From: Promethearchaeota archaeon
GTDB lineage: Archaea > Asgardarchaeota > Lokiarchaeia > Sigyniarchaeales > SOKP01
Direction of reading: 5' to 3'
Assembly: GCA_048939995.1 (NCBI GenBank)
Contig: JBHLOY010000012.1
Location: forward strand, 16,281 to 80,280
DNA: 64,000 nt
Position 1 is the stretch's first letter. Each line of letters starts with the position of its first letter. Below the pieces are notes generated by a model that searched no databases, was not told the origin of the DNA, and saw only the letters and a program-made list of their open reading frames with translations. Shown here one piece after another: positions 9,095 to 36,157 of the stretch. The position numbers and the translations under genes are program-made.

Positions 9095-9172
9095 GAATTT
9101 AATATTAGAGAAATTCTTGGATTTTATAAATCTAAATATAGAATCAATATAAAACCCAATTATTATCTTAAA

Positions 9173-9778: not shown

Positions 9779-9845
9779 TTTTTGTTATTTTTACCTTTTT
9801 TGCAATAACTATAAAGAAATTATACCAAGTTAGATTAAATTATAA

Positions 9846-10676: not shown

Positions 10677-11885
10677 TCAGAAGAAACCAGATGATACAGG
10701 AGATTGTAATCGTATTAGTTTCTGGCTATTATCTTCTAATATAGTGATTAAGGCTGAAATATCTTGTTTTGTTCTAAAAATTACTTCTTTTTCTTCATTA
10801 ATTTTCCAAATATTAAAACCAGTTAAATTAGGAGCAGTCTCGAATAGACCTTCTTGAAGTCCAGAAATTCTCACTGTAACTCCTTTTAGATTTTCTTTTG
10901 AAATATTTTTGATTTTGACCTTATATTTCTCCAAATCAGAGTCTATTGAGACTACCTTATAAGTTTTCTGAAATTTAGAGGAAATTCCATCAAATAAAGT
11001 AGGGGCTGCTGATGGTGTTCCAGAGAATAAATCAATTTCTTTCTTATTATCTCCAGTTGGTTTTGAAACTATTGTTATTGGAAGTTCAAAACTGATTGGC
11101 TCACGGCCATATTCGAATTTTGTTTTTCCAATGATTAATAATGAATATTGTGTATAATCTCCGAATTTAAATCCCCAGTACTCTTTTTCAGTTGGTTCCC
11201 ATAGGTAATTATGAGAAGGTTCAGCAATTTCCGGAACTTTTAATAATAAAAATCCCTTTTCAATGTCTGAAGTTTTCGCATCACCAGCAATCGCAGGAGG
11301 TAGCTCTTCCACCTTTCTACATTTTTGACCATATGTATCACAGAAACACACTAGATTTGATTTTTGTAAAAGCCGTACCTCGATATGTTTAAGTACATCA
11401 GATGAAAAGCTAACTTTAATTGTTTCTCCTGGTTTAAACAAATCCTTACTAAGGAGCACATTAAGTCCAGAAATTGAAAAGGAAATAGGGTTAGATTGTT
11501 TTCGTTGAGCAACTGAATCTCGTGATCTTATTTCTACTTTTTGTGTTCTATTAATAACTAAATCATCATCTGGATCAGTAGGATGTGGTTGCCTAACAAT
11601 TAATTTGAGTTCATATTCCAAATTACGATTCTTGATTGTCGGTACTACATTAGTTTTTATTAATAGAGAGCGTTCTCTAGTATATTCTCCAGCCTCAAAA
11701 TGGCCCTTTGAGAAGATTTCTTCTTTTGAGATTTGTAATTCCTTTACGCAAGGTGGTTGTGTGATTAATTTAATCCCAGCCCATAGAATAGATGTATCCT
11801 CTTCAAATTTGAAATTAGTTCTCACATTAAGTTTATCTCCTATAGAAACCGAACCGTTATTTAAATCTTGGAGCTCTAATTTCAT
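10677..11885 (-). CDS. Arrestin-like beta-sandwich protein with an extra C-terminal Ig-like domain
   Basis: All-beta pattern: SVSIGDKLNV (N-domain start), LEYELKLIV, LSKDLFKPGETIKV (C-domain start), FELPITIV (domain end); Cys-rich insert CFC-x6-C. Confidence 0.6.
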   Translation of the reverse strand: MKLELQDLNNGSVSIGDKLNVRTNFKFEEDTSILWAGIKLITQPPCVKELQISKEEIFSKGHFEAGEYTRERSLLIKTNVVPTIKNRNLEYELKLIVRQPHPTDPDDDLVINRTQKVEIRSRDSVAQRKQSNPISFSISGLNVLLSKDLFKPGETIKVSFSSDVLKHIEVRLLQKSNLVCFCDTYGQKCRKVEELPPAIAGDAKTSDIEKGFLLLKVPEIAEPSHNYLWEPTEKEYWGFKFGDYTQYSLLIIGKTKFEYGREPISFELPITIVSKPTGDNKKEIDLFSGTPSAAPTLFDGISSKFQKTYKVVSIDSDLEKYKVKIKNISKENLKGVTVRISGLQEGLFETAPNLTGFNIWKINEEKEVIFRTKQDISALITILEDNSQKLIRLQSPVSSGFF

Positions 11886-12088
11886 AATTTTAATTAGCTT
11901 ATGAGCTTATGAAGTTCACTATATTATAATCAATAGTTGAATTTTCTTAATATATATTATTAATTGCTAAAAAAAATAGAAGTTCTGCTTTTATTATTTA
12001 TGATTTCTTTCATTTTTAGAAAGATAAATAGTGAATTACATATTCTATCACTTAATAAGAAAACATCAGATAAAAAATTAGAATTAAC

Positions 12089-12790
12089 GTGATACAGTAC
12101 GAATATAAAGCAATCCTATTTGACCTAGATGGAACTCTGATTGATGTAGACTTGAAAAAATTTATTCCAAATTACTTAAAGCTTTTAGCAAATAGTATTT
12201 CCCATTTAGTCCCTCCAAACAAAGTAATTCCTAAAATTTTAAAAGTTTCAGAGGAAATTAATCAAAATGACGGAAAAATTACCAATGAACAAATCTTTAT
12301 TAATAAATTTTTTCCGATAGAAGGCTTTAATCAAGAAGAAATTCAACCATTGTTTGATAATTTTTATGAAACTAAATTTTCAGAATTACGTCAATACACC
12401 ATTAAAAAACCTGAAACACGAGCATTAATGCATAAGGTATTTAAAAAGGGATACCAAGTAGTCATTGCAACAACCCCTGTACTTCCTTTGACAGCAATCC
12501 AGCAAAGACTTGATTGGGCTGATGTTGGAGACTTTGAATACAATTTGATTACTACTATAGAAAATTCTCGAGCAAATAAACCAAATCCTATTTATTATAG
12601 ACAAATTATAGATTATTTAGGACATTCTGCAAAGGATTGCTTAATGGTTGGTGATGAAGATAAAGATATGGCAGCTAAAAATATTGGATGCCAAACTTTT
12701 CTAATTTATAGTTCTAATACGGATGTAAATAACGAAACTCCCAAGCCTAATTACACTGGAACTTTAGAAGATTTAATTAAAATGCTCTAA
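12089..12790 (+). CDS. HAD-superfamily hydrolase
   Basis: FDLDGTL, ATT, KP and VGDEDKD motifs. Confidence 0.92.
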   Translation: MIQYEYKAILFDLDGTLIDVDLKKFIPNYLKLLANSISHLVPPNKVIPKILKVSEEINQNDGKITNEQIFINKFFPIEGFNQEEIQPLFDNFYETKFSELRQYTIKKPETRALMHKVFKKGYQVVIATTPVLPLTAIQQRLDWADVGDFEYNLITTIENSRANKPNPIYYRQIIDYLGHSAKDCLMVGDEDKDMAAKNIGCQTFLIYSSNTDVNNETPKPNYTGTLEDLIKML

Positions 12791-12812
12791 TCTTAATTAA
12801 AAAATAAAGATA

Positions 12813-12968
12813 TTATTTAAGATAACTCACTCTTCTTACTTTTTTAACTTGTTCTTCTTTAGAGGGATCAAGGAGTTGCTCATGGTTCTTCTCAAGTTTA
12901 GATTTTACACATTCTTCGCAATATTTCAACCAAATTTCAGAATTTTTTTCTGGTTTTCGATTACTCAT
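12813..12968 (-). CDS. Possible small protein (51 aa) with CxxC
   Basis: Below the ORF-track cut-off: MSNRKPEKNSEIWLKYCEECVKSKLEKNHEQLLDPSKEEQVKKVRRVSYLK; fills an otherwise empty gap. Confidence 0.45.
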   Translation of the reverse strand: MSNRKPEKNSEIWLKYCEECVKSKLEKNHEQLLDPSKEEQVKKVRRVSYLK

Positions 12969-13154
12969 GATATATGCCTTGATTAGGATAATTAGAAAAT
13001 CTCATTATTCTAACATAGTTTTTTAATTAAAAACTTTTTTAAAACGATATAATATCTATGGATATGTTACAAAAATTACATATATGAAAAAATTTAAATA
13101 AAAATTCTAATGTATGAGAAAGAGTTGGTTATAAGTAAAAATAATTTTTCTAAT

Positions 13155-13745
13155 TTAGAATTTCCAAGTGACTAAGTCGTCATCATATTCTTCAAACTTA
13201 AGATTTTTAATAAATTGATAGGATTTAGGATTCTTCTTGTATACTTTACATCTTAATTCTTTAACACTTCGTTTTTTGAAGTATTCCCAAACTGTTAAGC
13301 CTAATAATGTACCTAATCCTTTATGCTGAAATTTAGGAATAACTCCTAAACCAGCGATTACACCTACTTCATTATTACGCCCAGAAAAATATATAAGAGC
13401 AAAACCGCAATCAATAGAGTTCGCTTGAGCTATTAAGAAAATAATATCAGGGTCTTCCATCATTTCACTTAAGTTTTGTTCATTTAGGTTATGATAAGGC
13501 ATTGAAGTAGAATTCCATGCTAATTTATATAGCTTAGTTATACTTTTAATATCTTCCTTATTAGCTTCTCTAATATTATATCGTATATTGTTCTCATTTA
13601 TTCTTTGTCTCAACTTATTCTCAAAATCTTCTGTAATCGCATCTACAAGAAGTCTCATCTGAATATAATCAGATTCACTTTTCAAAGTTTCTTCTACATT
13701 TGAAGTAATTCTTGTAATAAGGTTTCTAAACCATTCCATAATCAA
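13155..13745 (-). CDS. GNAT family N-acetyltransferase
   Basis: IREANKED, LGVIPKFQHKGLG (motif A), N..SY.F...L.F. Confidence 0.88.
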   Translation of the reverse strand: MIMEWFRNLITRITSNVEETLKSESDYIQMRLLVDAITEDFENKLRQRINENNIRYNIREANKEDIKSITKLYKLAWNSTSMPYHNLNEQNLSEMMEDPDIIFLIAQANSIDCGFALIYFSGRNNEVGVIAGLGVIPKFQHKGLGTLLGLTVWEYFKKRSVKELRCKVYKKNPKSYQFIKNLKFEEYDDDLVTWKF

Positions 13746-13871
13746 AAGAATTGGAAATTATAATAATTATAATAATAAAGAGTGAAGAACTCATAAACTC
13801 ATTCAAATTGTATTAAGATATCAAAATAATAAATAATAATATTTTTTAGAATAAAAAAAATTTTTTTATTT

Positions 13872-14696
13872 TTATTCATAGAGAGGTGAACCACAGGTTC
13901 CACAATACCTACCACCTTTTTCAACTTCTGATCCACAGTGTGGACAGAAATTCATGGATACGCTTGCTTTTGGTTGTTCTGGGGTATATGGAGTTGAATA
14001 AGTAGATGGAACAGGAACCTTAGGAGGTTGTGGTGCTTCTGGGATAGTAGGAGGAACAACCTTTTTTGAAAATGTTGGAGCGACTTCAGCAAGAGAAGAC
14101 AGCTTAAAATATCCTACTATATACATTATATATCCAATTATGATAGGGACAATTAAAAATCCGAGTGCCCATAATAGTGCAGCTGAGCTTAAATTGCTTG
14201 CTCCCTCATTGATACGAATATACCATCCGGGAGGAAATTGATCTTTACTTACATAAAAGTAGCTTTTAAGATTTTCCCAGCCACCTTTTTCTATTCCGCA
14301 ACCGATAATCATAAGAATAAATCCAGGAACTAATGCGCTTAGGATTAAGGGATTGAAAATTCCTAGCGGAAATGGAAAGTAATAATAATAATACATATAA
14401 GAACCTGTGATAAATCGCCCAAGTATAAATATAAAAGCAATATTAACCAATATCAGACCTATAAATTTAATTATCGCAGCTGCTAAATATTTCGAACTAA
14501 AACTACTGAGATATGGACTTCTTAATTGCTGATTTATCGCTTTGATGCGGCTAACTGCTATACAAACAAAGATTAGAATAATTAGATTAGCAACAAAGGC
14601 AAAAAAAGGTATTACGATGAAAATGCTAAAAATAGCTACGATTCGAATATTCTTCCCGAAGCTATACCATTTCAGTTCTAAATTATCATTTGACAT
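13872..14696 (-). CDS. Multi-pass membrane protein with C-terminal double zinc ribbon (DUF973-like)
   Basis: About 6 TM segments, Pro-rich linker, CPHCG...CGTCG. Confidence 0.8.
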   Translation of the reverse strand: MSNDNLELKWYSFGKNIRIVAIFSIFIVIPFFAFVANLIILIFVCIAVSRIKAINQQLRSPYLSSFSSKYLAAAIIKFIGLILVNIAFIFILGRFITGSYMYYYYYFPFPLGIFNPLILSALVPGFILMIIGCGIEKGGWENLKSYFYVSKDQFPPGWYIRINEGASNLSSAALLWALGFLIVPIIIGYIMYIVGYFKLSSLAEVAPTFSKKVVPPTIPEAPQPPKVPVPSTYSTPYTPEQPKASVSMNFCPHCGSEVEKGGRYCGTCGSPLYE

Positions 14697-14831
14697 TTAT
14701 TTAAACCTTCTAATTAATTGGTTTCTTTAAGGATAATAACACTAAAATAATTTAAATAGTTTTAGGAGACCAATTTTTTTTTGTCAATCTTTCTTAAATG
14801 AAAAGTAATAAGAAAAAATTTTAATTAGAAC

Positions 14832-15650
14832 TTATTCTTTCTTTAATGAAGAACCACATACTCCACAAAATCTCGCTTCTAATGGTACTCTTTCTCCGCA
14901 CATTGGGCAAAATTTAGCTAAACTAACTGGTGCTTCCTCTAAGGAGTCCGTTGATGGTAATTGTGGCTCAGGTTTTAGCTCAACTTCTGCTTTGACTTTT
15001 AAAGTTTCTACAGGCTTATGAATTTCTGCTACTCGATAGAAAGATGCCAATTTGAAGTAACCTATAGCCTGAAAAATGAAGCCTATAAATATTGTGATAA
15101 CTAAAAATCCTAAAGCTAACAATAATGCTCCAGTATGGGATTTATTCGCACCATCTATTAGATCTCCATAAACTGACTGTGGAACTAAATCTTGATTTTG
15201 CTGTAAAAAAGATGTGAAAAGTTTCCAAGCGCTCATTTCAGTTGAGGATCCAACAATAATAAGAATATATCCTATAAAAATTGCAATTGCTGCACCGATT
15301 ATAAAAACTGTGGAAGGTGTGAAATAAAACCAAGGAATACCTCCATATATTCTATTTCGAATGAAGATGAGGATGGGAATCATTAAACTTCCAATTATAC
15401 ATATAATCATTCCGACTACTCTAGTTAGAATTCCATTAAGCAACTTTCTACGAAATTCCTCGAGTGTTGGATTGTTAAGCCCTTTATTTATATCTCTAAG
15501 ATCGGCTGACATTAATATAATGATTATGAATGTAATAACCATACCTATTAAAGAGAGATAAGGAAAAATACTAAGAATAGCAGCAATTCCTAAGATTCGC
15601 ATGTATCTTCCAAAATCATAAAATATGTTTATTTTCCTTTCAGATGACAT
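14832..15650 (-). CDS. Paralogous multi-pass membrane protein with C-terminal double zinc ribbon
   Basis: Shares FG..RI, ALL.ALGFL..I.IG.I....GYFKL with its neighbour; CPMCG...CGVCG. Confidence 0.8.
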   Translation of the reverse strand: MSSERKINIFYDFGRYMRILGIAAILSIFPYLSLIGMVITFIIIILMSADLRDINKGLNNPTLEEFRRKLLNGILTRVVGMIICIIGSLMIPILIFIRNRIYGGIPWFYFTPSTVFIIGAAIAIFIGYILIIVGSSTEMSAWKLFTSFLQQNQDLVPQSVYGDLIDGANKSHTGALLLALGFLVITIFIGFIFQAIGYFKLASFYRVAEIHKPVETLKVKAEVELKPEPQLPSTDSLEEAPVSLAKFCPMCGERVPLEARFCGVCGSSLKKE

Positions 15651-15769
15651 AATAAATCAACTTTAAATAATATTCTAGTTTAGGTAAAAATGGAATCTAA
15701 TATATATATAATTATAGTAGTCTGATCTTTGATTGTCAGCTTTATAATATATTTTAGGAATAGTAATAA

Positions 15770-16984
15770 TTAGCTAAATAATTCTAATTTATCTGACTCT
15801 TGTGAAGTTTTTTTCATAATTTTCGATGTGGCTTTTACAAAATCATCATTATTTATTTTATTTGAATCTCTTCTGATAGCAAACATTCCCGCTTCAGTGC
15901 AAATTGATTTAATATCTGCTCCAGTGGCATTTTCAGTTAGTTTAATTAATTCTTTATAATCAACATTCTCCTCAACATTTAGGAATCGTGTATGAATTTT
16001 AAAAATTTCTGTTCTTGATGCCTTATTAGGCATTGGTAATTCTATAATTCTATCAAACCTCCCAGGTCTTAATAAAGCACGATCTAAAATGTCAATACGA
16101 TTTGTAGCTCCAATAAATTTAACATTCCCCCTCATGTTAAAACCATCTAATTCACTTAACAATTGCATTAATGTTCTTTGAACTTCTCTGTCTCCAGAAG
16201 TGGCATCTTCCATCCTCTCGGCAGCTATTGCATCTAATTCATCAATAAATAGAATTGTTGGGGCTTTTTTTCTTGCTAATGTAAAAATTTCTCGTACATA
16301 ACGAGCACCCTCACCAATAAACTTTTGTACTAATTCTGAGGCGATTACCCTAATAAAGGTCGCTTTTGTTTCATGAGCTACAGCTTTTGCTAATAATGTT
16401 TTACCTGTACCTGGAGGACCATGAAGTAGAACTCCTCTCGGAGGATCAATTCCCACTTTCTCAAATAATTCTGGTTTTAATAAAGGTAATTCTACTGTTT
16501 CTCTTACTTCCTGTATTTGGTCATCTAAACCACCAATATCATTGTAAGATACATCCGGTATAGTATCAACTAATTCCATTCCTCTGATAATTGGATCTAA
16601 ATGTGTGGGTAATATTTCCATAACAGAATAAGTATTTTGATTTAAGGCAACATTTAATCCGGTAGTAAGGTTTTCTTCTCTCACATTTTTACTTGTATTT
16701 ACAACAAAACTGGAGCCAGTAGAAATATTTATTATTACTCTCTCTTTTTTCTCATCCAAAATGTCTATTATAGTACCAGTTATTAGAGGAGCCTCTCTTA
16801 GATGCCCCATTTCATTTCTTAAAGTATTTAAATCATGTTCTAATTTTAAGCATTCAGTTTTTAGAGTTCGCCTTTCACTTTCAAGATCTTTTATACGTTT
16901 CTCTAAATGATTGACATAATTTGTGAGGTATTCCTCATCTTTCATGTCTTTCCTTTTTCTATCGTCTCTTCCTGTAGATTGCAT
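15770..16984 (-). CDS. pan: Proteasome-activating nucleotidase (AAA+ ATPase)
   Basis: N-terminal coiled coil and OB domain, GPPGTGKT, ELVQKFIGEG pore loop, FIDELD, LLRPGRFDR, GADIKSICTEAGMFAIR. Confidence 0.95.
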   Translation of the reverse strand: MQSTGRDDRKRKDMKDEEYLTNYVNHLEKRIKDLESERRTLKTECLKLEHDLNTLRNEMGHLREAPLITGTIIDILDEKKERVIINISTGSSFVVNTSKNVREENLTTGLNVALNQNTYSVMEILPTHLDPIIRGMELVDTIPDVSYNDIGGLDDQIQEVRETVELPLLKPELFEKVGIDPPRGVLLHGPPGTGKTLLAKAVAHETKATFIRVIASELVQKFIGEGARYVREIFTLARKKAPTILFIDELDAIAAERMEDATSGDREVQRTLMQLLSELDGFNMRGNVKFIGATNRIDILDRALLRPGRFDRIIELPMPNKASRTEIFKIHTRFLNVEENVDYKELIKLTENATGADIKSICTEAGMFAIRRDSNKINNDDFVKATSKIMKKTSQESDKLELFS

Positions 16985-17240
16985 GTAAAAATAAAGTAAA
17001 TTTATGTTATTATCTGCTTTTTATAAAATTATTCCAAGTATTTATTCTTTGTTTATTGCTTTCAAAATTCTAAAAGTAACTTTACAGATAAAAACTAAGT
17101 CTTTTCTCAAATATGTAAATGATTATTAATTAATACTTTTATAATTATATGTATAGGATCTCAATAATCTAATCAATATGTCTAATACCAAAATTAGAAA
17201 AATTAGATATTTGGATAGATAAATAACATTGTAGACAATT

Positions 17241-17900
17241 ATGACTAGTTTCAAAACTGTGGTTAATAATTTACAAAAACATTATAAAGATGCTGAATCG
17301 GTTGCAATTATCAGTAAATCAGGAAAGTTGTTATATTGTACAAAAAATTGGAACATAAAAGGGGATATAAGTAATTTATTATCAAGATGGGCTAGTGGGT
17401 CAGCACAATCAGTATCAGTAGATTCAATTCGATATTCCATAGTTCAAATGGAACCAGAAAGGTTTATAGCTACAAATCGGCATAATAAAGGACATTTAAT
17501 TGGTGCTACTACCCCTGATGGAGAAAATTGTATGGTTGCTCACATTAGGTCTAAGGCAAAGGGTTGGTTTCACCTGGCATATCCTGCAGTTGCCAGGGCA
17601 GCAGCTATGTTAAAGAAGGGATCTACTTCTGAATTTGTTAAAACTGAGATCGACTTTTCAGAAGAACCAACAAAAGGAAAAATCAAAAAATCGGAACAAT
17701 ATACCACGTATGGTTATACTACTTCTGCTCCTATGATGGATCTAAATCTAAAGGCAGAAATAGAAGCATTTTTAGAATGGATCAAAAATCCAGATGGACT
17801 GAGAGGCTATCTTTCTTACTACTTACAAACAAATGATCAATATTTCCTTTCTAAACTTGCTGAAATTTATCAAGATTTATATAGAATCTTTTATCCTTAA
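17241..17900 (+). CDS. Asgard profilin-domain protein with about 95-aa C-terminal extension
   Basis: Residues ~1-125 (AIISKSGKLLYCTKNWNI...SVSVDSIRYSIVQMEPERFIATNRHNKGHLI) match the remembered Loki profilin pattern (AII.K.G.....T.NWNI...S.S...I.Y.IV....ER.I.TN...KGH). Confidence 0.8.
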   Translation: MTSFKTVVNNLQKHYKDAESVAIISKSGKLLYCTKNWNIKGDISNLLSRWASGSAQSVSVDSIRYSIVQMEPERFIATNRHNKGHLIGATTPDGENCMVAHIRSKAKGWFHLAYPAVARAAAMLKKGSTSEFVKTEIDFSEEPTKGKIKKSEQYTTYGYTTSAPMMDLNLKAEIEAFLEWIKNPDGLRGYLSYYLQTNDQYFLSKLAEIYQDLYRIFYP

Positions 17901-17960
17901 TTCAATAGCTGTCAATTATTAATAAATCTACTTTTAAAAAGAATAAGATATAAATTTTTT

Positions 17961-18878
17961 TCAATCTGTATGAGCAGATATAATTAAATCTGCAAATAGT
18001 TTCATATCATTTAATAGCGTATTTAGCTTATCTTGAGATGTTCTATCTAAATCTCCGGTCTTCATTATTAATACTGAAATAATATATTTGAATATATGTA
18101 GTTCAACTTCTTTTCCTTCATCGTTTCTTCCTTTAAATACAGCCGAGTCTGACATAAAAATATTCTCTCTTACTGTATTACATGAATTTATGAAATCCCT
18201 TAAATCTCCTCTTAAAGTTAGACCACTACTTACACCTTGTACATTGTGTACAATAACATTACCGGAAACATCAGAGATTATGATTTTTGCTTTAATTTCT
18301 TCTAATTGCTCTTCGGCTTTCTCAACATGAGCTTTTAATTCTGAATAGCTTGAAATTAATATATCTCTAAAAACTTTAGCTAACTCATCTTGTAAGTAAA
18401 TGCTTGTGAGCTTATAATCAAAATCATATTCTTTAAACATATCTAAGAAAATTTCTTTTGCCTTCTTAACATTTGTATCAAGAAGCTCTTTTTGATAATC
18501 TTCAGTATCATATTTATGAAGGAAAAGGAAGATTTTCGGCTTTTCATTATTTTTTCGATATATATCTAGCAATCCATTGAAGTATTCCTTAGCTTGTATA
18601 AAATCTTTAGGTGAATGTAGGTCCACCACAGGGATTAGAATATCTGTTCCTCTTATTACTTCCGGTTTTTCCATATACTCTTTTCGATATTGTTCTTGTC
18701 CGCCAAAGTCAAAAATTCCGACTTGCAAGCCTAGAAATGGATGTCTTCTAGTTTCATACAATATGGTTGGGCTTAAACTTTTTGTGTCTTCTGCACTTTT
18801 TTCAGCAAAAGCAACTGAATAAAGACTCGTTTTACCACAACCACTCAAGCCAACTAAACTTATTTTCAAGGAGCACAC
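17961..18878 (-). CDS. Rag/Gtr-like small GTPase with C-terminal roadblock/longin-like domain
   Basis: GLSGCGKTS, T..L.PT, DFGGQ, HKYD (Rag-type G4), TSIY (G5); about 120-aa C-terminal alpha/beta domain (IIISDVSGNVI). Confidence 0.85.
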   Translation of the reverse strand: MCSLKISLVGLSGCGKTSLYSVAFAEKSAEDTKSLSPTILYETRRHPFLGLQVGIFDFGGQEQYRKEYMEKPEVIRGTDILIPVVDLHSPKDFIQAKEYFNGLLDIYRKNNEKPKIFLFLHKYDTEDYQKELLDTNVKKAKEIFLDMFKEYDFDYKLTSIYLQDELAKVFRDILISSYSELKAHVEKAEEQLEEIKAKIIISDVSGNVIVHNVQGVSSGLTLRGDLRDFINSCNTVRENIFMSDSAVFKGRNDEGKEVELHIFKYIISVLIMKTGDLDRTSQDKLNTLLNDMKLFADLIISAHTD

Positions 18879-18958
18879 ACCTTTTTATGGGTTCTTTACT
18901 ATTTTCTTTTTTTATATAATTAATTATTTCATTTAATCTTTTATTAAATTAGATCGTT

Positions 18959-20458
18959 TTATTTTTCTTCTTTAGGTGTTAGTTTAAAAGTCCTTGAGAA
19001 GATTTTACCATAATCCTCAGTTGAAGCTTCAACTAATACATTTCCATATACAATTTGTCCATCCTTTTCTTCAAGAGGATATCCAATTTCTATAGTTTCG
19101 AATGGAAATAATTCTTTTATGGTAGTAACCCATGGTCGTTTTTCAAATAACTCTTCTAAACTAACAATTCTAATTTTTGCGTCTTCTAAAACATAACCAA
19201 TAGTATTTGTAATTGAAATATTTAGAATTTTATTTTCTTCATCAATATCTTTAGATACGCTTAAGAATTTTTTACTTCCTAAAGTTGGTGTTACTGCAAC
19301 TTGATCGTCCTCAGGTTTAGTTTCAATTCTAGGTTCTTCCTCTGCCATGTCTTTCACTATAAAGACCTTACGTTTTTGAACTGTATATTGGGATACCTTC
19401 TTTAATTTTGCTAAAAATAAGACTGAATTCAAATTAATTGCATTGAATGAATCTATTTTTAAATATCCTTTCTTGGCAGCATCTTCAATTATTTCTGCCC
19501 CAAGACCAGATCTAGCGAAAACAGTATTTTTATTAGGACCACTACCAACAGAACCCACAGAAATATCTGCTTTTTCAGAAGTCAAGTCTACGCAAAAATT
19601 GCAACTTGAAGACTTAAATTTATCTAGCTCTTTTATAGTGTAGGATTTCACCGGATTACTCTCGGGATCATAATAAATATGAAATTTACCTTTATTAATA
19701 TCCATTTTCTTAACTTTTGAGAGATCAATTCCATCTTTTTCAAAAAAAGGATAAATAGCCTCCGGGGCAAAAGAATCCATACAGAAGATACCAATCGTAA
19801 AGATATGAGCTCGCATGAAATATTTAAGCATTCCAGCTGGAGAATTCAGCATTTTATATACCGCATCGATATTACATGGAGTACCCACGAATGCTATTGA
19901 ATGGAATCCTTGTCGGATAGCCTCCATTAGAGCCTCTACTGTTTGGGAATGACAATAAATTGAACCACTTGCTTTAATTGCATCATTTTTATTTGTGACT
20001 ATTTGAGCTACGGGATACCATGGTTTTTTGGGATCCTTCATAGTTACAACAGCAGCATCAATTAAATGTTCATCAAATAAATAAGAGAGGAGTGAAGTAA
20101 CTGTACCACCATCTTGAGCTCCAATTACTTCCGGAATATTAGTATTTGCTACATAACCATTTTTGAATTCACCCATTAGTTGGATTGGGTCAGTAATAGT
20201 ACGTGGACACTGATTATAACAGATTCCACACCCAGTACACTTGCCTATTAACTTTGGTTGACTTGTAACATAGTCCCATTCAAGGACAGGACATACAGCA
20301 GCACAAGTCCCGCATTCCGTACAAATACCAGCACGGATTATTTCTTTCATTAGCATTCCATAGGAATCCTTTTTACCTTCCAGTTTCTTTTGAATATAAT
20401 CGAAAGAATATTCGTATTGGGACGATTTTTGATTTTCCTCAGTTTTATTCTCAGTCAT
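18959..20458 (-). CDS. F420 hydrogenase/dehydrogenase beta-subunit (FrhB/FdhB) family protein with ferredoxin domain and C-terminal Ig-like extension
   Basis: CTECGTCAAVCP, CTGCGICYNQCP, QDGGTVT, VGTPC, IGIFCM, CNFCVD...ADISVGSVG. Confidence 0.88.
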   Translation of the reverse strand: MTENKTEENQKSSQYEYSFDYIQKKLEGKKDSYGMLMKEIIRAGICTECGTCAAVCPVLEWDYVTSQPKLIGKCTGCGICYNQCPRTITDPIQLMGEFKNGYVANTNIPEVIGAQDGGTVTSLLSYLFDEHLIDAAVVTMKDPKKPWYPVAQIVTNKNDAIKASGSIYCHSQTVEALMEAIRQGFHSIAFVGTPCNIDAVYKMLNSPAGMLKYFMRAHIFTIGIFCMDSFAPEAIYPFFEKDGIDLSKVKKMDINKGKFHIYYDPESNPVKSYTIKELDKFKSSSCNFCVDLTSEKADISVGSVGSGPNKNTVFARSGLGAEIIEDAAKKGYLKIDSFNAINLNSVLFLAKLKKVSQYTVQKRKVFIVKDMAEEEPRIETKPEDDQVAVTPTLGSKKFLSVSKDIDEENKILNISITNTIGYVLEDAKIRIVSLEELFEKRPWVTTIKELFPFETIEIGYPLEEKDGQIVYGNVLVEASTEDYGKIFSRTFKLTPKEEK

Positions 20459-20640: not shown

Positions 20641-22239
20641 TTAGGGTTTTTCTAATTCAAGCTTTTCTTCGATTCTTTTTATTGCGTTCGAAGCATGGAT
20701 TCTTACAACCCTGTGAAAGTCATTTATCCTTCGAAGTAATGCCTCTAGGGCTTTTTCTCCACCAAAAGTTTCTAAAAATTTAATTAAGCTTAATTTAACT
20801 TTAAAATCTTCGTCATCATTAACTTTTAGATATTCTATTAATGTCGCGAGATGGATATTCAATTCTCGCTTTAAATCGGGTGCTTGTTCTTTTAATTTAT
20901 ACCAATTGCGATGGAAAATGTTAAAGATGGCATCTACAGCCACCTTTTTAATTAGCCAATAAACTTCTTTATTATCTAATAAGCTAATTAAATCATCAAG
21001 AGGTTTAAGATTTCCAATTTTCCCTAGGGCGATAATTGAATTTTTCTTTATTTCCAAATTTCTTTCATGCAATAAATTGAGTAGTGGATTGACAAAATCT
21101 TCCTTTCCTAATTCGCCAAATAAAAAAGCAACACTTTCTTTAATAGTATCATTATCTTTTTCCAAATAAGAATACAGATGGTCATATCGTGGTTTTTTAT
21201 TGTTTAAATAAATACTTTTTACAGCATCTAATATAAATAACCTCATATCCAAGTCTGTATATTCAAAACTCACATCTTCTATATCTAATACACTTAATAG
21301 ATCGGGAATTGCTGAAACATCACCAATTTCTCCCAACGCTTTAATTGAAGCAACACTGACTTCGTTGTAAATATTATCGAGATTTGTAATTAATAAATCT
21401 ACAGCATCAGTTAACTTTAATTTTCCACTTAGTTTTATAGCATTTTGTTTAACTATAAAATCATCCATAAGTATAAGCTTTATAATTTCATCCTTAATCT
21501 CTGGTTCAATCAGTTTTGTAATAGTCAATATTGCATCCATTAACTCAGCATCTTCTTCTTTTAAAATCCGTGTTATCTCATCTAATAATATATTCTTATT
21601 TGCGATTAATTCTGAAATTACTTTTGGATATTTTTGTTTTAAATAACTTACATCTTCAAAAGAAATGTCAATAGTGGATAATTCAGTCCCAAGTAGCTTT
21701 ATAATCTCAGTATTATGCTCATCAGAGAATTCTTTTTCTTTCAGGGATTTTAATAGGATTTTAATTAATTTTTCAGGATTAAGGGCTATAAGTTGATTTA
21801 GTATAAAATCTCTAACAGAATTGTGAGGGCTATCTAACTCACGGATAAATAATTCAATTTCTTCGTCGTCAAATTTAATTTTCTTTATTGCTTTTAATAC
21901 AGAGAGTTTAATTTCCAAATTATCTGATTTCTCTTCTAAAATCCACTTCAAAGGTTTAAGGGCTTTATCGTATTTGAGTTTCCCTAAGGCTTTAGCAGCT
22001 TCGCATTTGAATTCAATACTCTCTTCAGAAACCAATATATTTTCTAAAGTGCTAAAACATTCTTTTATTGATAAAGGAGCTTCTCTACCCACTAAACCTA
22101 AATATTTTATAGCCCCCCTTCTTTTGCTTTCTACTTTTTCATTATTAATGATCTCTCTTAAAATCTTAATAGAATTGTCTATCCCAAGCTCCTCTCTTCT
22201 CTGAAATATTTCTTCTGGAGGAGGTTTTTGTTCTACCAT
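20641..22239 (-). CDS. HEAT/PBS-lyase repeat protein
   Basis: Repeated A..ALG.(I/L)G...A...L units. Confidence 0.88.
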   Translation of the reverse strand: MVEQKPPPEEIFQRREELGIDNSIKILREIINNEKVESKRRGAIKYLGLVGREAPLSIKECFSTLENILVSEESIEFKCEAAKALGKLKYDKALKPLKWILEEKSDNLEIKLSVLKAIKKIKFDDEEIELFIRELDSPHNSVRDFILNQLIALNPEKLIKILLKSLKEKEFSDEHNTEIIKLLGTELSTIDISFEDVSYLKQKYPKVISELIANKNILLDEITRILKEEDAELMDAILTITKLIEPEIKDEIIKLILMDDFIVKQNAIKLSGKLKLTDAVDLLITNLDNIYNEVSVASIKALGEIGDVSAIPDLLSVLDIEDVSFEYTDLDMRLFILDAVKSIYLNNKKPRYDHLYSYLEKDNDTIKESVAFLFGELGKEDFVNPLLNLLHERNLEIKKNSIIALGKIGNLKPLDDLISLLDNKEVYWLIKKVAVDAIFNIFHRNWYKLKEQAPDLKRELNIHLATLIEYLKVNDDEDFKVKLSLIKFLETFGGEKALEALLRRINDFHRVVRIHASNAIKRIEEKLELEKP

Positions 22240-26223: not shown

Positions 26224-28167
26224 ATGGAAAAATCTGATACTCAACGGATTGGATACTATGCTTGTCAATGAGGAATAAATATTCGTGGAAAAGTTGATTG
26301 CAGTAAGCTAGTGGAATACGCTAAAGATATAGATGGAGTTGTTGTTTCTAAGCAACACAGCTTCCTCTGCACTGAGAGTGGACAAAACGAAATTATCGAA
26401 GATATCAAAGAAAAGAAACTTAGTTGCATTGTTGTTTCTGCTTGAACTCCACGTACTCATGAACCTGTTTATAGAGGATCGATCGCTAAAACTGATTTAA
26501 ACCCCTATTACTTTCAAATGGTAAATGTGCGTGAACATTGTTCTTGGTGCACTGAAAGTAATGAAGAGGCTTTAGAAAAAGCTAAAATTCTAGTAAAGAG
26601 TGGTATTGAACGTGGAAAGTTATTAGAAGTCGTTCCAATTAGAACTGTTCCTGTAGAGAAGGCCACTTTAGTTGTGGGTGGAGGAATAGCAGGTATGAAT
26701 GCAGCTTTGGACCTTGCAAATCAAGGAATTAAAGTATATTTAGTTGATAAAAATACAACCATTGGAGGTCGAATGGCGCAATTAGACAGAACATTTCCTA
26801 CGGACGACTGTGCTATTTGAATTTGCGGGCCTAAGATGCTTGAAGTAAATCGTAATGAAAATATTGAGATTCTTAGTTATTCAGAAGTTAAAAAAGTCGA
26901 AGGTTATGTGGGTAATTACGAAATTACTATTGAAAAGAAGCCTCGATATATAAATCCAGAAACTTGTAACGGATGTGGAGCCTGCGCAGAAGTCTGTCCA
27001 ACCTACACTACAAATTACTTTGATGAATATTTAGGAGCAAGGAAAACAATTGATATTGCTTTTGGTCAGGCAGTCCCTTTTCTATATGATGTTAATAGAG
27101 ATACTTGCGTGGAATGTTTTAATTGTGTCGATGCTTGTGAGTTAGATGCAATAGATTTCAGCCAAATACCAGAAGAAGTTAAATTTAAAGTTGGAACCAT
27201 TATCATTGCTACTGGTTGGGATATATATGAACCATACGGAGAATACGGCTATGGGGAATATGCCAATGTAATTACCCAATCTCAACTCGAGCGAATGTTG
27301 GCTCCAAATGGACCATTAGAAGGACATGTTCGAAGAATTTCCGATGATAAAAAATTGAATGAGATTGTTTTTATTCAATGTGTTGGAAGTCGAGATACTG
27401 AAAGAACTTACTGTAGCGGTGTCTGTTGCATGCTTGCTTTAAAAAATGGAAAGTTACTTAAGGAAGAATTTCCTGATGCTAATATTACTATTTGTTATAT
27501 TGACATTAGGACTAATGAGAAAGGTTTTGAAGAATATTACCAACGAGCTAAGGATTCGGATATTCGAATGATTCGTGGTAAAGTAGGTGAGATTTCAGAA
27601 GATCCAGATACAAAAAATGTTAAGATACGTGTATATTCGTCGTTAACTGATGAAATAATTAACATCGATGCCGATTTAGTGGTTTTGTCAACAGCAGCAT
27701 TACCATCTAGAGGCACTCAACAAATTGCAAAGGTTTTAAATTTAGATACTGATAAAAATGGATTTCTAACTGAATCCCACTTCGGTTTAATGCCACAAGA
27801 AACAAAAACTAAGGGTATTTTTATAGCTGGATTCGCACAAGGACCTAAAGATATCGCATATTCAGTGTCACAAGCAAGAGCAGCTGCGAGTAAAGTTGCC
27901 GAACTAACTTCTGCTGGTGAAATTGATCTCGAATTAATTGTGGCGGAAGTAGATAAAGATTTCTGCATTTCATGTAAAAGGTGTGAAAAGGAATGCCCAA
28001 AAGGTGCAATAAAGATTCTAGACAAAGAGGGAGCTGTTGTAGATGAAATTAATTGTGATGGATGTGGTATATGTGCTTCCTGCTGCCCAACTCGGGCAAT
28101 TGATATACGATATTACAGAGATTATCAGTTATATGCTGAAATTGAAGCACTACTAGGAGGAGATTAA
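26224..28167 (+). CDS. hdrA: Selenocysteine-containing heterodisulfide reductase subunit A (647 aa; Sec16, Sec74, Sec199)
   Basis: One frame from ATG 26224 to TAA 28167 with TGA at 26269 (RIGYYACQ*GINI), 26443 (VVSA*TPRTHE) and 26818 (FPTDDCAI*ICGPKM). The paralogue at 32617 has Cys at all three (ICHCGINI, VASCTPRTHE, NDCSLCILAPKM). Joins ORF-track fragments 26518-26820 and 26836-28167. Confidence 0.93.
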
Positions 28168-28171
28168 ACAA

Positions 28172-28612
28172 ATGGAGAAAAATTTTAATATATTAATGTT
28201 TGCTTGCTTAAAGTGAGGTTATAGTGCTGCTGATTTAGCTGGTGTCTCTCGTTTAAAGTATACTCCTTCAGTAAAAATCATAAAAGTTAGGTGCACTGGG
28301 CGAGTTGACTTAAAGCACATTTTATATGCTATTAAATCTGGAGCTGATGGGGTAATGATAGTTGGATGACGACCAGATGAATGTCAATTTAAGAATGGCA
28401 ATTTTAAAGCTCAAACTCATGTCGATTTAGCCAATAGAATATTAGAACGCAGAGGATTTGGAAACCAGAGAGTTAATCAATATTGGTTAAGTGGTGCTGA
28501 ATCTGAAAAATTAGTTAAAAGTGTTGAAGATACAATGGAAAAAGTGAGTCGCATGGGTAAAAATCCTATCCACGAAAAAAAAACAAAAAAAGTAAAAAGT
28601 GCAGCCTCTTAG
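28172..28612 (+). CDS. mvhD: Selenocysteine-containing MvhD/VhuD [2Fe-2S] subunit (146 aa; Sec15, Sec66)
   Basis: Absent from the ORF track. MEKNFNILMFACLK*GYSAADLAGVSR...VRCTGRVD...GADGVMIVG*RPDECQF...; TGA at 28214 and 28367 align to Cys in the paralogue at 35720 (FCCNWCSYAGADLAG; GCHIGDCHY). GGAGG SD at 28156; TAG stop. Confidence 0.93.
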
Positions 28613-28652
28613 AATGACTCTTATAAAAAAATATTCGTTATAAGATGACTAA
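28609..28652 (+). promoter_or_regulatory. SECIS element, eukaryote-like kink-turn type
   Basis: TTAG-AAT-GA-C-TCTTATAA-AAAAATATTCG-TTATAAGA-T-GA-CTAA: helix I TTAG/CTAA, 3-nt bulge, tandem G.A/A.G (ATGA at 28614-17, GA at 28647-48), perfect 8-bp helix II, A-rich apical loop. Confidence 0.85.
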
Positions 28653-28724
28653 CCATGTGTTGGTGTAGAGGTATTTTAATAGAATTAAATTTCAATTGTT
28701 AATAAATAAAATAGAAGAAAAAAT

Positions 28725-30224
28725 ATGGTACAGGTTGTGAATGAGAAATCATTCAGTGGAATTTCTCCAAAAAATTTGCTTGAAGCAACATTTAAGGCGT
28801 CCGAAAATTTCCAAATTAGAGCTTTTTATGAATCAAAAAAGGAGATATTAAACACATCCAAATATACCGAAAGTGAATTTTTTGAAATATATGATGCAAT
28901 GTTAGATGCGGAAACAGAAAGAAGGATTGTCTTAGAGAGGCTTAGAGGAAATAAACCATTATTTTTAGAAGAAATAATTAAGCTTATAAAAGAATTTCCT
29001 CCTGATAATGTTGTAAGAGATGTTATCTATTTAAAAGAACAAGGTTATATCGAGGAACAGGTCGAGATTAAAACTAAATTAGTCATAAAAAAAATAAAAG
29101 GAGAAGAAAAAGAAGTAGAAGAAAAAGAATATTTTTATAGATATCAAGTGAAAAATTTATCAGAGGATTTTGTTGAAAAATATTTTGAACCCGTTTCAAT
29201 CGTGTTTGAAGCAGAAGTATGTTGTCAATGTGGTTGGTGTTCTTCTATATGTCCAGTGAATGCAATAAGTGTGACATCAGATTTGCTTGAAATTGATGAA
29301 GACAAATGTATGAAATGTGGTTTATGTTTTTCGGTGTGTCCTCGTTCATTTTCAATTGATCAAGCCTATAAAACTATCCGGCAATTGGATAAAAAACTTA
29401 ATTGGTCAGATAAAATTGGAGGCTATTTTAATGCGTATTCGGGTTCAACAACAAAAGATGCAATAAAAAAGGTGAAACAGGATGGAGGTGTGGTAACCTC
29501 ATTATTAGAATACTTATTAGAGAATAAGTTAGTGGATGCCATAATTGCTGTCAAACATTCAAAGGATTTATGGAAACCTGAACCAGTAATCGTCGATAAT
29601 GTTAAGGATCTTTACATTACTGGTGGTACTAAATATGCAAACGCTGCTACATTATCATTCATCGAAGCAGCTAAAAATTATGAAAGAATTGCTGTCGTGG
29701 GAGTACCTTGTATGATGAAGGCAATTGAAAAAGGTATTCTCTTTCCAAGTGGACTCCCTTTCTTCAAAAATATCAAATATACAATTGGATTATTCTGCAT
29801 GGAATCCTTTCCTTATGAAGGAGTAGTACAATTAACTAAAGACAAATTTGATAAGGATATTAATGATCTAACAAAAATGAATATTGATAGTGGAAAATTC
29901 ATTATTAAATTGAAATCTGGAGAAGAATTGAGTGTAGATTTGAAAGAAATTAAATCATATGCTCGTCATAATTGTCACTATTGTGAAGATTTAACTTCAG
30001 ATTATGCTGATATTTCTGTTGGATCAATAGGTTCTCAAGGAGGTTGGTCTTCAGTTGTTACTCGATCTAAAGAAGGAGATGAGATTTATCAAGGTGCTAT
30101 AGATGCTGGATTGATTGAATCTCAAAGTTTAAAAGATGTAAAACCGGGGCTAGGACTTTTGGAACGAATTGCTGGAACAAAACGAAAAAATTGCAAATTG
30201 ATTGAACTTAAAAGGAGTGAATAA
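28725..30224 (+). CDS. FrhB/FdhB-family protein with N-terminal helical/winged-helix extension and ferredoxin domain
   Basis: CCQCGWCSSICP, CMKCGLCFSVCP, QDGGVVT, VGVPC, IGLFCME, CHYCED...ADISVGSIG. Confidence 0.88.
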   Translation: MVQVVNEKSFSGISPKNLLEATFKASENFQIRAFYESKKEILNTSKYTESEFFEIYDAMLDAETERRIVLERLRGNKPLFLEEIIKLIKEFPPDNVVRDVIYLKEQGYIEEQVEIKTKLVIKKIKGEEKEVEEKEYFYRYQVKNLSEDFVEKYFEPVSIVFEAEVCCQCGWCSSICPVNAISVTSDLLEIDEDKCMKCGLCFSVCPRSFSIDQAYKTIRQLDKKLNWSDKIGGYFNAYSGSTTKDAIKKVKQDGGVVTSLLEYLLENKLVDAIIAVKHSKDLWKPEPVIVDNVKDLYITGGTKYANAATLSFIEAAKNYERIAVVGVPCMMKAIEKGILFPSGLPFFKNIKYTIGLFCMESFPYEGVVQLTKDKFDKDINDLTKMNIDSGKFIIKLKSGEELSVDLKEIKSYARHNCHYCEDLTSDYADISVGSIGSQGGWSSVVTRSKEGDEIYQGAIDAGLIESQSLKDVKPGLGLLERIAGTKRKNCKLIELKRSE

Positions 30225-30225
30225 G

Positions 30226-31338
30226 ATGAGTTCCAAAACTTTTGAGGATTTAATTAAAGAAGTTCATGAAAAGGGTATCTGCCAAGAATGTGGAGGTTGT
30301 GTATCCTTTTGTTCCTCAGCAGAGTATGATGTAATAGGATTAAAGGACCCATACAAGCCTCCTGAATATATTAATAAAGAAAAATGCCTGGAATGTGGAA
30401 TTTGTTACCATATTTGTCCACAAACCCATATCTTAGATGATGATTTAAATGAGATATATAATTTCTCAGACTTTTCAGCAACTCCTATAGGATATTATGA
30501 AGATATCTATTCATGTCAAGCAACAGATCCAGAATTTTTAAAATATGGAACAGATGGAGGAGTTGTTAATTCTATTATTAATTTTCTAATTGAAAAGAAA
30601 ATGGTTGATGGTGCAATAGTATCTAAAACTGATGCTCCATTTTCCAGAGAAGCAACATTTGCTGATAGTAAATACGATCTATTAAAAGCCTCTGGAGCAA
30701 AATTAGATATCACCCCACAATTAAATGAAATACAAAAGTTTTGCACCTACACTCATTCTATTCCCGAATTAAATCATTATAAGTTTAAAAAATTAGCAAT
30801 AGTTGGAACTCCATGTCAAATTTATACTATCAGGTGTATGCAAGATTTAGGAGTTACTCCTTCAGAAAATGTTGAAATTTGTCTTGGATTATTTTGTTAT
30901 GAAAACTTTCTATTTGAAAAATTTCAAATTGAGAAATTTGAAAAAGATTTTAATATAAGATTTAGAGACATTGTTAAGATAAATATTAAGGAAGATGTGA
31001 TTTTTAAATTACGGAGTGAGGCTCCTACAGAAAAAATTGTACATGTTCCTTTTAATCATTTGAATGATTATATGCGTCCAGCTTGTAATGCTTGTGGGGA
31101 TTTTACTAATATCTTTGCGGATATATCATTTGGAGGTTTAGGGTCTCAAGATAAATATACTACTGTAATAACTCGAACTAAAAAAGGAAAAGAAATCTTT
31201 TCTAAAGTTGTTAATGAAGGAGTAATTACTAGCAAAGAATTAGATGCAACTAAAAGAAAGAAAATGCTAGATTCAATTATAGAATATTCGAAATTAAAAG
31301 TATTGCGTAAAGAAAAGTTTATGCAGAAATTAACATAA
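30226..31338 (+). CDS. Second FrhB/FdhB-family protein
   Basis: CQECGGCVSFC, CLECGICYHICP, TDGGVV, VGTPC, LGLFCYE, CNACGD...ADISFGG; ATG 30226 follows the upstream stop. Confidence 0.88.
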   Translation: MSSKTFEDLIKEVHEKGICQECGGCVSFCSSAEYDVIGLKDPYKPPEYINKEKCLECGICYHICPQTHILDDDLNEIYNFSDFSATPIGYYEDIYSCQATDPEFLKYGTDGGVVNSIINFLIEKKMVDGAIVSKTDAPFSREATFADSKYDLLKASGAKLDITPQLNEIQKFCTYTHSIPELNHYKFKKLAIVGTPCQIYTIRCMQDLGVTPSENVEICLGLFCYENFLFEKFQIEKFEKDFNIRFRDIVKINIKEDVIFKLRSEAPTEKIVHVPFNHLNDYMRPACNACGDFTNIFADISFGGLGSQDKYTTVITRTKKGKEIFSKVVNEGVITSKELDATKRKKMLDSIIEYSKLKVLRKEKFMQKLT

Positions 31339-31341
31339 AAT

Positions 31342-32598
31342 GTGAGAAGTATAACAGAATCGAAAAGAGATATTGAAAGGAAAAAATTCTTTGGTGATAC
31401 ATTAGATTATTTAGATAAAGTTTACGAATCTAACCTAAGAAATTTATTAAAAAAATGTTATCAATGTGGACGTTGTAGTAGTGTCTGCCAACTAAGCAAA
31501 GTTCAAAAATTTCCCCCAAGTAGGATTATTCAGTTAATCTTGGAAGGATTTGAAGATAAAGTATTGAATTCTGGGGTTTTATGGGATTGCCTTACATGTA
31601 ACCAATGTTTAAAAGACTGCCCAGAAAAAATTAATTTCGCAGATATCGTTAGAATTGCACGATATAAAATGAGACACGAAGCTAATCAAAAATCTGACGA
31701 TTTAGTTGCTCATAAGGGCATTTATACTACAATAGCTGAAATTATGAGTAGACCATACATTACACCAGAAAGATCATTAGAATGGATACCAAAAGATTGC
31801 GGCGTGTCAGATAAAGGAGATATACTTTATTATATTGGATGTTTACCTTTCTATGAATATGAATTTGAAGGTTCAAATAATATTGCTACAAGTACCATAA
31901 AACTCTTATGCCAAATTGAAAAGAAATCAATAGTAGTTTTGAAAGAAGAAAGTTGTTGTGGGCATGATATTTACTGGGGACAGGGCAAATTGAAGACTTT
32001 TATCAAATTGGCAAAGAAAAATTTAGATAAATTTGAAAAAGCGGGAGTCTCTACAATAATCACCGCATGTGCTGAATGTTATAGAACTCTTAAAATTGAT
32101 TATTCGAATATTTTTGAGAATTTTTCATCTAAGTTTAAAGTAAAGCATATTATTGAATACATTTATGATAAATGGAAACAAAATGAAATAGCATTTAAGG
32201 GACCAGTAGAAGAGGATAAAGATACCACATTTACCTACCATGATCCCTGTAGGTTGAGTAGATTTTTACCTGAGGAGGTGAATTTAACTAAAAAAATTAG
32301 AGAAATTTTTAACGAATTAATGAAGTTAGGATTCAACTTTAAAGAAATGAAACACAATCAAGAAAATTCTCTTTGTTGTGGAGTAAATTCATGGATGAAT
32401 TGTAATGAAAAATCTAAAGCACTCAGATATAAACGTATGCTAGAGGCAAAATCAGTAGCAACTATAATGGTTACTTCGTGCCCGAAATGTGAGCTACACT
32501 TTAAATGTCTTCAAAATGATTTTGAAGATATTGCAAGTATTAAAATCTTGGATTTTTCAGAGTTTATTATAAACAATGTTGAGATAATTGGTACCTAA
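31342..32598 (+). CDS. hdrD: HdrD-like (HdrC+HdrB fusion) Fe-S/CCG-domain protein
   Basis: CYQCGRCSSVC, CLTCNQCLKDCP, two CCG domains (GC...CCG...CAEC; HDPC...CCG...CPKC). Confidence 0.85.
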   Translation: MRSITESKRDIERKKFFGDTLDYLDKVYESNLRNLLKKCYQCGRCSSVCQLSKVQKFPPSRIIQLILEGFEDKVLNSGVLWDCLTCNQCLKDCPEKINFADIVRIARYKMRHEANQKSDDLVAHKGIYTTIAEIMSRPYITPERSLEWIPKDCGVSDKGDILYYIGCLPFYEYEFEGSNNIATSTIKLLCQIEKKSIVVLKEESCCGHDIYWGQGKLKTFIKLAKKNLDKFEKAGVSTIITACAECYRTLKIDYSNIFENFSSKFKVKHIIEYIYDKWKQNEIAFKGPVEEDKDTTFTYHDPCRLSRFLPEEVNLTKKIREIFNELMKLGFNFKEMKHNQENSLCCGVNSWMNCNEKSKALRYKRMLEAKSVATIMVTSCPKCELHFKCLQNDFEDIASIKILDFSEFIINNVEIIGT

Positions 32599-32616
32599 AA
32601 GGTGAGAGATAACAGA

Positions 32617-35700: not shown

Positions 35701-35719
35701 AAACAAAATGTGAACTTAT

Positions 35720-36157
35720 ATGCCAAAAGCAAAAACTAAATCAAAAACCGTGCAATTTAATCCCGAAATTTTAGTGTTTTGTTGTAATTGGTGTAGTTAT
35801 GCAGGGGCAGATTTAGCTGGGGTTTCAAGGTTCCAATACCCTCCTAATATGAGAATAGTTAGAGTTATGTGCTCGGGAAGAGTAGATCCTGCATTTGTTA
35901 TAAAGGCTTTAAAGGAAGGGGCCGATGGTATATTAATAACTGGTTGCCATATTGGTGATTGTCATTATATTTCAGGGAATGAATATGCAAAAGAGCGATT
36001 CGAAAGATTACATAGTATTATTATTAAGCAACTTGGTATTAATGAAAAAAGAGTAAGGTTAGAATGGGTTTCTGCTTCAGAAGGAAAGCGTTTTGCAGAT
36101 TTGATTACAGAATTTACAAATCAAATCAAAGAATTAGGACCACTTAAAATACTTTAA
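35720..36157 (+). CDS. mvhD: MvhD [2Fe-2S] subunit (Cys type)
   Basis: FCCNWCSYAGADLAG, MCSGRVDP, GCHIGDCHY, WVSASEG. Confidence 0.95.
   Translation: MPKAKTKSKTVQFNPEILVFCCNWCSYAGADLAGVSRFQYPPNMRIVRVMCSGRVDPAFVIKALKEGADGILITGCHIGDCHYISGNEYAKERFERLHSIIIKQLGINEKRVRLEWVSASEGKRFADLITEFTNQIKELGPLKIL

Follow-up and report, generated by a model that had tools for sequence, protein, structure and literature searches.

A shared Ig-like C-terminal domain on three proteins encoded around a Rag/Gtr1-like GTPase in Asgard archaea

The closest described relatives of the gene cluster analysed here are the eukaryotic Rag/Gtr GTPases and their longin-type GTPase-activating proteins (GAPs), namely FLCN-FNIP, NPRL2-NPRL3 of GATOR1 and the related SMCR8-C9orf72. 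In eukaryotic longin GAPs the arginine finger sits in the loop between strands 4 and 5. Its use by these proteins has been described (PMC9473554, 10.1101/2020.04.15.042515), and a GP motif precedes strand 2 of the GAP longins (PMC12290439). According to the passages considered here, FLCN/NPRL2-like longins with GAP-like motifs as well as Rag-like GTPases are already known from Asgard archaea. The same passages leave the partner GTPase of these longins open (PMC12290439), report an operon with a roadblock protein, a DENN protein and a Rab-like, non-Rag GTPase (Liu et al., 10.1101/2020.10.19.343400) and state that Asgard gene layout seldom pairs GTPases with their regulators (PMC10933270). In contrast to the cluster considered below, they make no mention of a shared Ig tail, of FrhB or of an arrestin. 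No paper on this tail or on this cluster was found in the literature searched, which excludes most subscription journals. Here we describe a window (the whole analysed stretch of 64,000 nucleotides, contig JBHLOY010000012.1) from a Lokiarchaeia-type Asgard archaeon whose named homologues are Promethearchaeota. In this window an arrestin-like protein and an FrhB-type flavoprotein carry the same C-terminal Ig-like tail, and a Rag/Gtr1-like GTPase is encoded between them. The tail family appears to mark a Rag/longin-GAP hub that differs from the described Asgard and eukaryotic ones.

The proteins in question are encoded as follows (window coordinates unless another contig is named; the limits of the tails are approximate):

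10677..11885, minus strand: putative arrestin/Vps26-fold protein of 402 aa, with a probably two-lobed arrestin-like body (aa 1 to ~290), a linker and the shared tail
10680..10982, minus strand: Ig-like shared tail, arrestin copy, ~100 aa, Phe-Glu tip at 10839-10844 (F348, E349)
11319..11750, minus strand: four cysteines (C46, C180, C182, C189) in the body of the arrestin host, invariant in 18/18 aligned homologues
17961..18878, minus strand: Rag/Gtr1-like GTPase of 305 aa with a C-terminal domain (Gtr1_RagA, E 3e-24)
18959..20458, minus strand: FrhB/FpoF-type iron-sulfur flavoprotein of 499 aa (FrhB_N, FrhB_C, Fer4), followed by a linker and the shared tail
18962..19288, minus strand: Ig-like shared tail, FrhB copy, ~100 aa, Phe-Glu tip at 19142-19147 (F438, E439)
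C13:244290-245351, another contig of the same genome: longin protein of ~340 aa with the shared tail, the third host

A sequence-only reading of the window had proposed that the arrestin-like and the FrhB-like protein end in the same domain. Its gene positions and the quoted tail sequences were correct. Both genes lie on the minus strand, and a low-complexity linker precedes each tail. Direct comparison of the two tails yielded a BLASTP E-value of 0.056 and shuffling p-values of 0.0024 for the tails and 0.016 for the full-length proteins. This pairwise comparison is insufficient as proof of homology; family profiles suffice. Orthologues were gathered from relatives and one alignment was built per host, with 24 arrestin tails and 26 FrhB tails. 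HHalign matched the arrestin and FrhB profiles with 97.5% probability (E 5e-12, 80 columns), the arrestin and longin profiles with 98.3% and the FrhB and longin profiles with 99.5%. The match between the separately built arrestin and FrhB profiles is significant. When the 13,727 open reading frames (ORFs) of the genome were searched with a hidden Markov model (HMM) of the arrestin tails alone, the arrestin itself was recovered, together with the longin host at E 9e-6 and the tail of FrhB at E 2e-4, and nothing else. Each single-host HMM found the other hosts as its top matches. Judged by these profiles, the homology of the tails across the hosts is real.

The similarity exceeds that of generic Ig folds. 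Asn28, Phe48 and Glu49 are conserved to at least 91% in each of the three host families. The Phe-Glu pair, located at a hairpin tip, reaches 91-97% per host family at an overall identity between hosts of 15-30%, and generic Ig repeat proteins match the tail profile only in part. An AlphaFold2 model of the FrhB tail (pLDDT 91) displays a seven-strand Ig-like sandwich with a long C-D hairpin (strands three and four) and the Phe-Glu pair at its tip, which according to the secondary structure is probably exposed. No Pfam family covers the tail; the best E-value was 3.5e-4, in 2 of 54 members. We consider the tail to be a real new domain family.

The sequence-only reading had called the domain an unnamed Ig-like or appendage-like sandwich. 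The first part agrees with the model and with the absence of a Pfam family; the appendage or ear part is only one of many tied fold matches. No single fold stood out in the search, whose matches included transglutaminase at Z 10.4, GH2 enzymes, the core complex of Fanconi anaemia proteins, BBS1 at Z 8.5 and TRAPPII at Z 8.0. The tail resembles the GAE domains of the BBSome (BBS1, BBS9) and the adaptin ear in being a beta-sandwich of ~100 aa that occurs on several subunits after a linker (PMC7018512). However, the match to BBS1 483-588 (rmsd 3.7, 98 aligned) is equalled or exceeded by many unrelated Ig domains, including those of transglutaminase, GH2 and the Fanconi core, and the sequence support is marginal: 3 of 54 members match GAE_BBS1, and these only weakly (E 0.002 at best). 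Unlike BBSome subunits, the tailed Asgard proteins have no beta-propellers or platform domains. Foldseek with the tail gave generic GH3, RhoGDI and NPC2-type matches only, and neither arrestin nor adaptin ears were among the top 50 VIA matches. The nearest Atlas models were a tailed FrhB cluster and unnamed Promethearchaeota proteins of 344-346 aa. A derivation of the tail from the arrestin C-lobe was considered and not supported (beta-arrestin matches E 0.36-1.6, HHalign 20-22% over 25 columns).

The combined tail profile matched 181 of 400 Asgard genomes, most commonly with three copies (range 1-5) and usually with one per host. As each such search scores a restricted set of candidates, "not found" here and below does not mean absence. 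In a library of 1.84 billion representatives, the full-length, non-fragment matches with an identifiable body comprised 33 longin, 20 arrestin and 8 FrhB proteins; the remaining matches were fragments or weak partial matches to long surface or repeat proteins. In a quick tree of the tails (103 columns) a branch with SH-aLRT 99 sets the arrestin tails apart from the rest, and the tree requires 3 changes of host label versus 37 in shuffles. This clustering by host indicates that the sharing is older than the split of these Asgard classes and that the domain is not moving now. Consequently, the sequence-only reading was wrong to regard the domain as mobile: it was found on three hosts only, groups by host protein and stands in a gene order kept across Asgard classes. 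Of the hosts it recognised two, and it missed the longin elsewhere in the genome as well as the intervening Rag-like GTPase.

The Rag/Gtr1-like GTPase has intact G1, G2 (PT), G3 (DFGGQ), G4 (HKYD) and G5 (TSIY) motifs and a C-terminal region of ~110 aa. Its closest solved relatives are Gtr1 and RagA (E 2e-16 to 3e-15). The cluster shares such a GTPase with the eukaryotic systems. In contrast to them it holds one Rag gene and no second Rag, hence no A/C pair, and no Ragulator or TOR gene. Orthologues of this GTPase have 46-64% identity across classes. They occur in the same ten families as the multi-copy tail domain and were not found in others; as the genomes are related, this co-occurrence at family level is a description and not a statistical test. 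In three genomes assigned by inference to an Atabeyarchaeia family the tailed FrhB is the only tailed protein, and neither a Rag ortholog nor a longin was found. There the Phe-Glu tip is lost in 3/3 copies and the core residues are kept, which suggests that the tip is a candidate partner-binding site; this loss cannot tell the Rag GTPase from another tail as the partner.

The Rag gene of the module carries an insert of 31 nt at the same codon, just before DFGGQ, in three related genomes of two genera:

L192:1508-1538 (genome G043): Rag-gene insert, 31 nt
L193:1508-1538 (genome G212): Rag-gene insert, 31 nt
L187, ~1786-1816, minus strand (genome G003): Rag-gene insert, 31 nt

The window's Rag gene has no such insert. 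The inserts fit a bulge-helix-bulge shape with 4/4 central pairs and 6 exon pairs, and if both bulges are cut behind their second base, the conserved reading frame is regained. The insert looks like a tRNA-type intron in an mRNA.

In the window, Rag follows downstream of the FrhB gene after a gap of 80 bp. Jordarchaeia, Freyarchaeia and several Lokiarchaeia families (Helarchaeales-like or Helarchaeota-labelled, and related ones) share a gene order that runs from CBS and longin+tail, in some cases via a further CBS or a peptidase gene, to FrhB+tail, then Rag and finally arrestin+tail. In the window's family the cluster is loosened, yet 58 of 72 testable loci have the tailed FrhB gene directly upstream of Rag. 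The cluster of a Heimdallarchaeota-labelled family contains a pair of longins along with CBS, FrhB and Rag; no arrestin was found in this family, and the second longin restores the tail count to three. In several lineages the module adjoins a cluster of Hdr type. The module was not found in one Lokiarchaeia family (0/14 genomes), and two other families had marginal single tail matches (E 4e-5 and 9e-5). The family with 0/14 is putatively that of the cultured strains, which might be a reason why the module has escaped notice.

Helarchaeota-type genomes encode fusion proteins of 630-640 aa that combine longin+tail with four CBS domains (L065:10777-12672, L077:9196-11115, L078:2508-4397). This fusion speaks for counting the CBS genes among the module's components. 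In 34/34 sampled loci of the window's family the longin gene is followed by one for a GNAT acetyltransferase, which occurs likewise in two related families (L090:8684-9178, L194-L223, L176-L179, L066, L067); it is possibly a further component.

The model of the longin host consists of the longin domain, helices, a linker and the Ig tail. Top fold matches of the longin were NPRL2 (Z 10.8, rmsd 3.5, 138 aligned) and a folliculin complex chain (Z 10.6, rmsd 3.5, 146 aligned), and Foldseek with this host also listed the yeast SEA complex. The longin profile had no sequence match in PDB or Pfam. Gly30 at the start of strand 2, the position of the eukaryotic GP motif, is invariant (49/49 members). 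A strand 4-5 loop with the pattern S-x-R-x-K-x-R-x-G is kept in about three quarters of the 49 members (R91 in 37, K93 in 38, R95 in 35, G97 in 36). In these three features the longin may resemble the eukaryotic longin GAPs. Tailed longins stand in tandem in the Heimdallarchaeota-labelled family, one with and one without the Arg loop (L082:10811-12906, L092:6445-8557, L093:10093-12143), the family's second longin being the one that lacks it. They recall the catalytic/non-catalytic pairs FLCN-FNIP and NPRL2-NPRL3. In the list of stop-to-stop ORFs, an mvhA-like gene upstream of the longin at L081:9014-10318 is spread over two frames that overlap (434 aa as open frame, 339 aa from the first ATG).

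The FrhB-type host retains two ferredoxin-type cluster motifs, QDGG, GTPC and the C-terminal cluster motif. With all of these cofactor motifs intact it resembles the F420-flavoproteins of the FrhB, FpoF and Fsr N-terminal type. As the motifs are kept in 31/31 tailed copies checked, the flavoprotein is probably redox-active. It matched a solved F420-type beta subunit with E 2e-46 and remained below the curated cut-offs (167 vs 331.5 bits for frhB, 111 vs 475 for FpoF); on these scores it is not frhB or fpoF proper. It also differs from FrhB and FpoF in its tail and in having a GTPase gene as neighbour rather than frhAG or fpo genes.

The arrestin host matched Arrestin_C with E 7e-5, below the Pfam cut-off; 10 of 18 homologues also matched this family below the cut-off, and no Arrestin_N match was obtained among the 18. 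Among named Atlas clusters, arrestin and Vps26 come closest to it, both at 0.85, which serves as a lead only. One of its four cysteines lies in the N-lobe and three lie in the C-lobe. They are invariant in all 18 homologues at 23-60% identity and form a candidate metal or thiol site. Weak SWIM zinc-finger matches were seen in 3/18 homologues. Among alpha-arrestins and Vps26 proteins, TXNIP possesses a redox switch of Cys63, Cys190 and Cys247 (PMC3941024). The Asgard protein shares the arrestin-like body and the presence of cysteines in both lobes, which is an analogy only: the resemblance of the cysteines is loose, the arrestin profile had no sequence match to TXNIP, and a third sandwich domain is present at the Asgard C-terminus.

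We interpret the tail as a docking module that is ancient and has been inherited vertically. It would belong to one Asgard signalling unit whose centre is a single Rag/Gtr1-like GTPase, and this GTPase would be its most likely partner. We put this forward tentatively, as a reading that falls somewhat short of probable. Because the same tip is conserved on all three hosts, the tail may bind a common partner. Each tail would present its Phe-Glu hairpin tip to the Rag GTPase, and the three hosts, which are unrelated proteins, would bind to it one after another or together on a dimer of the GTPase. By analogy, the conserved Arg loop could then enable the longin to act as a GAP of the folliculin/NPRL2 kind. 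The flavoprotein might report the redox state of F420 or ferredoxin, the adenylate state might be read by the CBS proteins encoded nearby, and the arrestin with its cysteines would be an effector or adaptor. These GAP, sensor and effector roles are drawn from knowledge of the protein families. The link between a redox enzyme and a trafficking-type protein that the sequence-only reading suggested is plausible.

A bolder version of this reading is doubtful as a whole. It describes an operon-encoded Rag switch with a folliculin/NPRL2-like GAP, an F420/ferredoxin sensor and a cysteine-switched arrestin effector, all brought to one Rag by the same private domain. Such a switch would be a prokaryotic, redox-driven relative of Rag-GAP nutrient signalling, with the catalytic/non-catalytic longin pair already in a Heimdallarchaeia-type lineage. 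It would add the Ig-like tail, the FrhB-type flavoprotein, the arrestin and the CBS partners to what is known from eukaryotes. 

Asgard genomes carry dozens of small GTPases and longins. Gene order, co-occurrence and the shared domain single out a set of soluble proteins that can be studied in vitro: one Rag-like GTPase, a candidate GAP, a redox enzyme and an adaptor. Candidate partners for an archaeal counterpart of the eukaryotic nutrient switch can thereby be put to the test. If the Rag-centred reading is true, the pairing of Rag and longin GAP would be older than eukaryotes, and its input would be the redox or energy state.

Several observations weigh against a Rag-centred unit with a longin GAP. 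In the window genome the cluster is split, with the arrestin gene 6 kb from Rag and the longin gene on a contig of its own, and no close CBS or GNAT partner was found. The Atabeyarchaeia comparison concerns one lineage, which is without the other tails as well as without Rag. Three genomes (G219, G240, G249; 92-99% complete) keep a longin with an intact Phe-Glu tip and yielded no Rag ortholog, and G043 has Rag but none of the tailed proteins. These mismatches could stem from recent loss or from gaps in the assemblies. The fold matches of the longin to NPRL2 and folliculin are tied with the longins of Sec22, the SRP receptor and VAMP7. Gly30 is followed by His in 33 and by Pro in 3 of the 49 members, giving GH rather than the eukaryotic GP in most; the copy of the window genome has Pro. 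R91 and R95 are candidate counterparts of the eukaryotic finger at the level of the loop. Finally, unlike FLCN and SMCR8, the longin model contains no cDENN or dDENN domain, and none of the 49 members had a DENN match in Pfam. Given the absence of these further domains, the longin host may by analogy work like FLCN or NPRL2 and yet is not an FLCN.

The best surviving alternative is that tails bind other tails. This is consistent with the usual single copy of each host per genome and with the second longin that brings the count back to three in the family without a found arrestin. The GAE-GAE pairing in the BBSome is a precedent (PMC7018512), BBS1 is among the tied fold matches, and the weak GAE_BBS1 matches point the same way. 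The lost tip of the orphan Atabeyarchaeia copy fits as well. However, the same tip on all three hosts would suit a common partner better than complementary faces, the copy number varies from 1 to 5 and lone longin tails retain the tip. We therefore regard tail-tail assembly as unlikely.

According to another explanation, which we judge quite improbable, the tail docks the three hosts on a different scaffold, such as an electron-bifurcating Hdr/Mvh complex, a membrane protein or a HEAT protein. The unit would then regulate or localise energy-conserving complexes, with no Rag-like signalling. The module does lie next to hdrA clusters in several lineages, and on C13 the longin gene overlaps the end of an hdrA-mvhD/mvhG/mvhA operon. 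Yet Hdr/Mvh genes are within 1.5 kb in only 4 of 34 longin loci of the window's family, no hdrA gene occurs in the stretches examined for Freyarchaeia or in those for the main Heimdall-type operons, and the HEAT gene is limited to one family. More improbable still is a tail left over from duplications of neighbouring genes in an old operon, each copy serving its own host (stability or separate partners) without a common complex: the scattered operon in the window's family and the generic matches of a common Ig-like sandwich would agree with this, but the surface motif stays at or above 91% in all three hosts at 15-30% identity overall and has disappeared in just those genomes that no longer have the partners, and the Rag co-occurrence holds at family level.

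The remaining features of the window around the preferred Rag-centred unit are:

20641..22239, minus strand: HEAT-repeat gene, in the same orientation and upstream of FrhB in many genomes of the window's family only
26518..36157, plus strand: context cluster in which split HdrA pieces are accompanied by two FrhB paralogues lacking the tail, an HdrC/B-like fusion, HdrA and MvhD

We are unsure whether the HEAT-repeat gene, considered accessory, belongs to the module. No hydrogenase large subunit was among the genes checked in the Hdr cluster. A promoter scan with a sigma-70 model, which is unsuited to archaea, produced matches at chance level only. A protein of 219 aa without a Pfam match is encoded at 17241-17900. 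The region 8717-10649 contains a small winged-helix-like gene, an Arf/MglA-like GTPase gene (9173-9778) and a cupin gene, which flank the arrestin gene in several genomes of the window's family.

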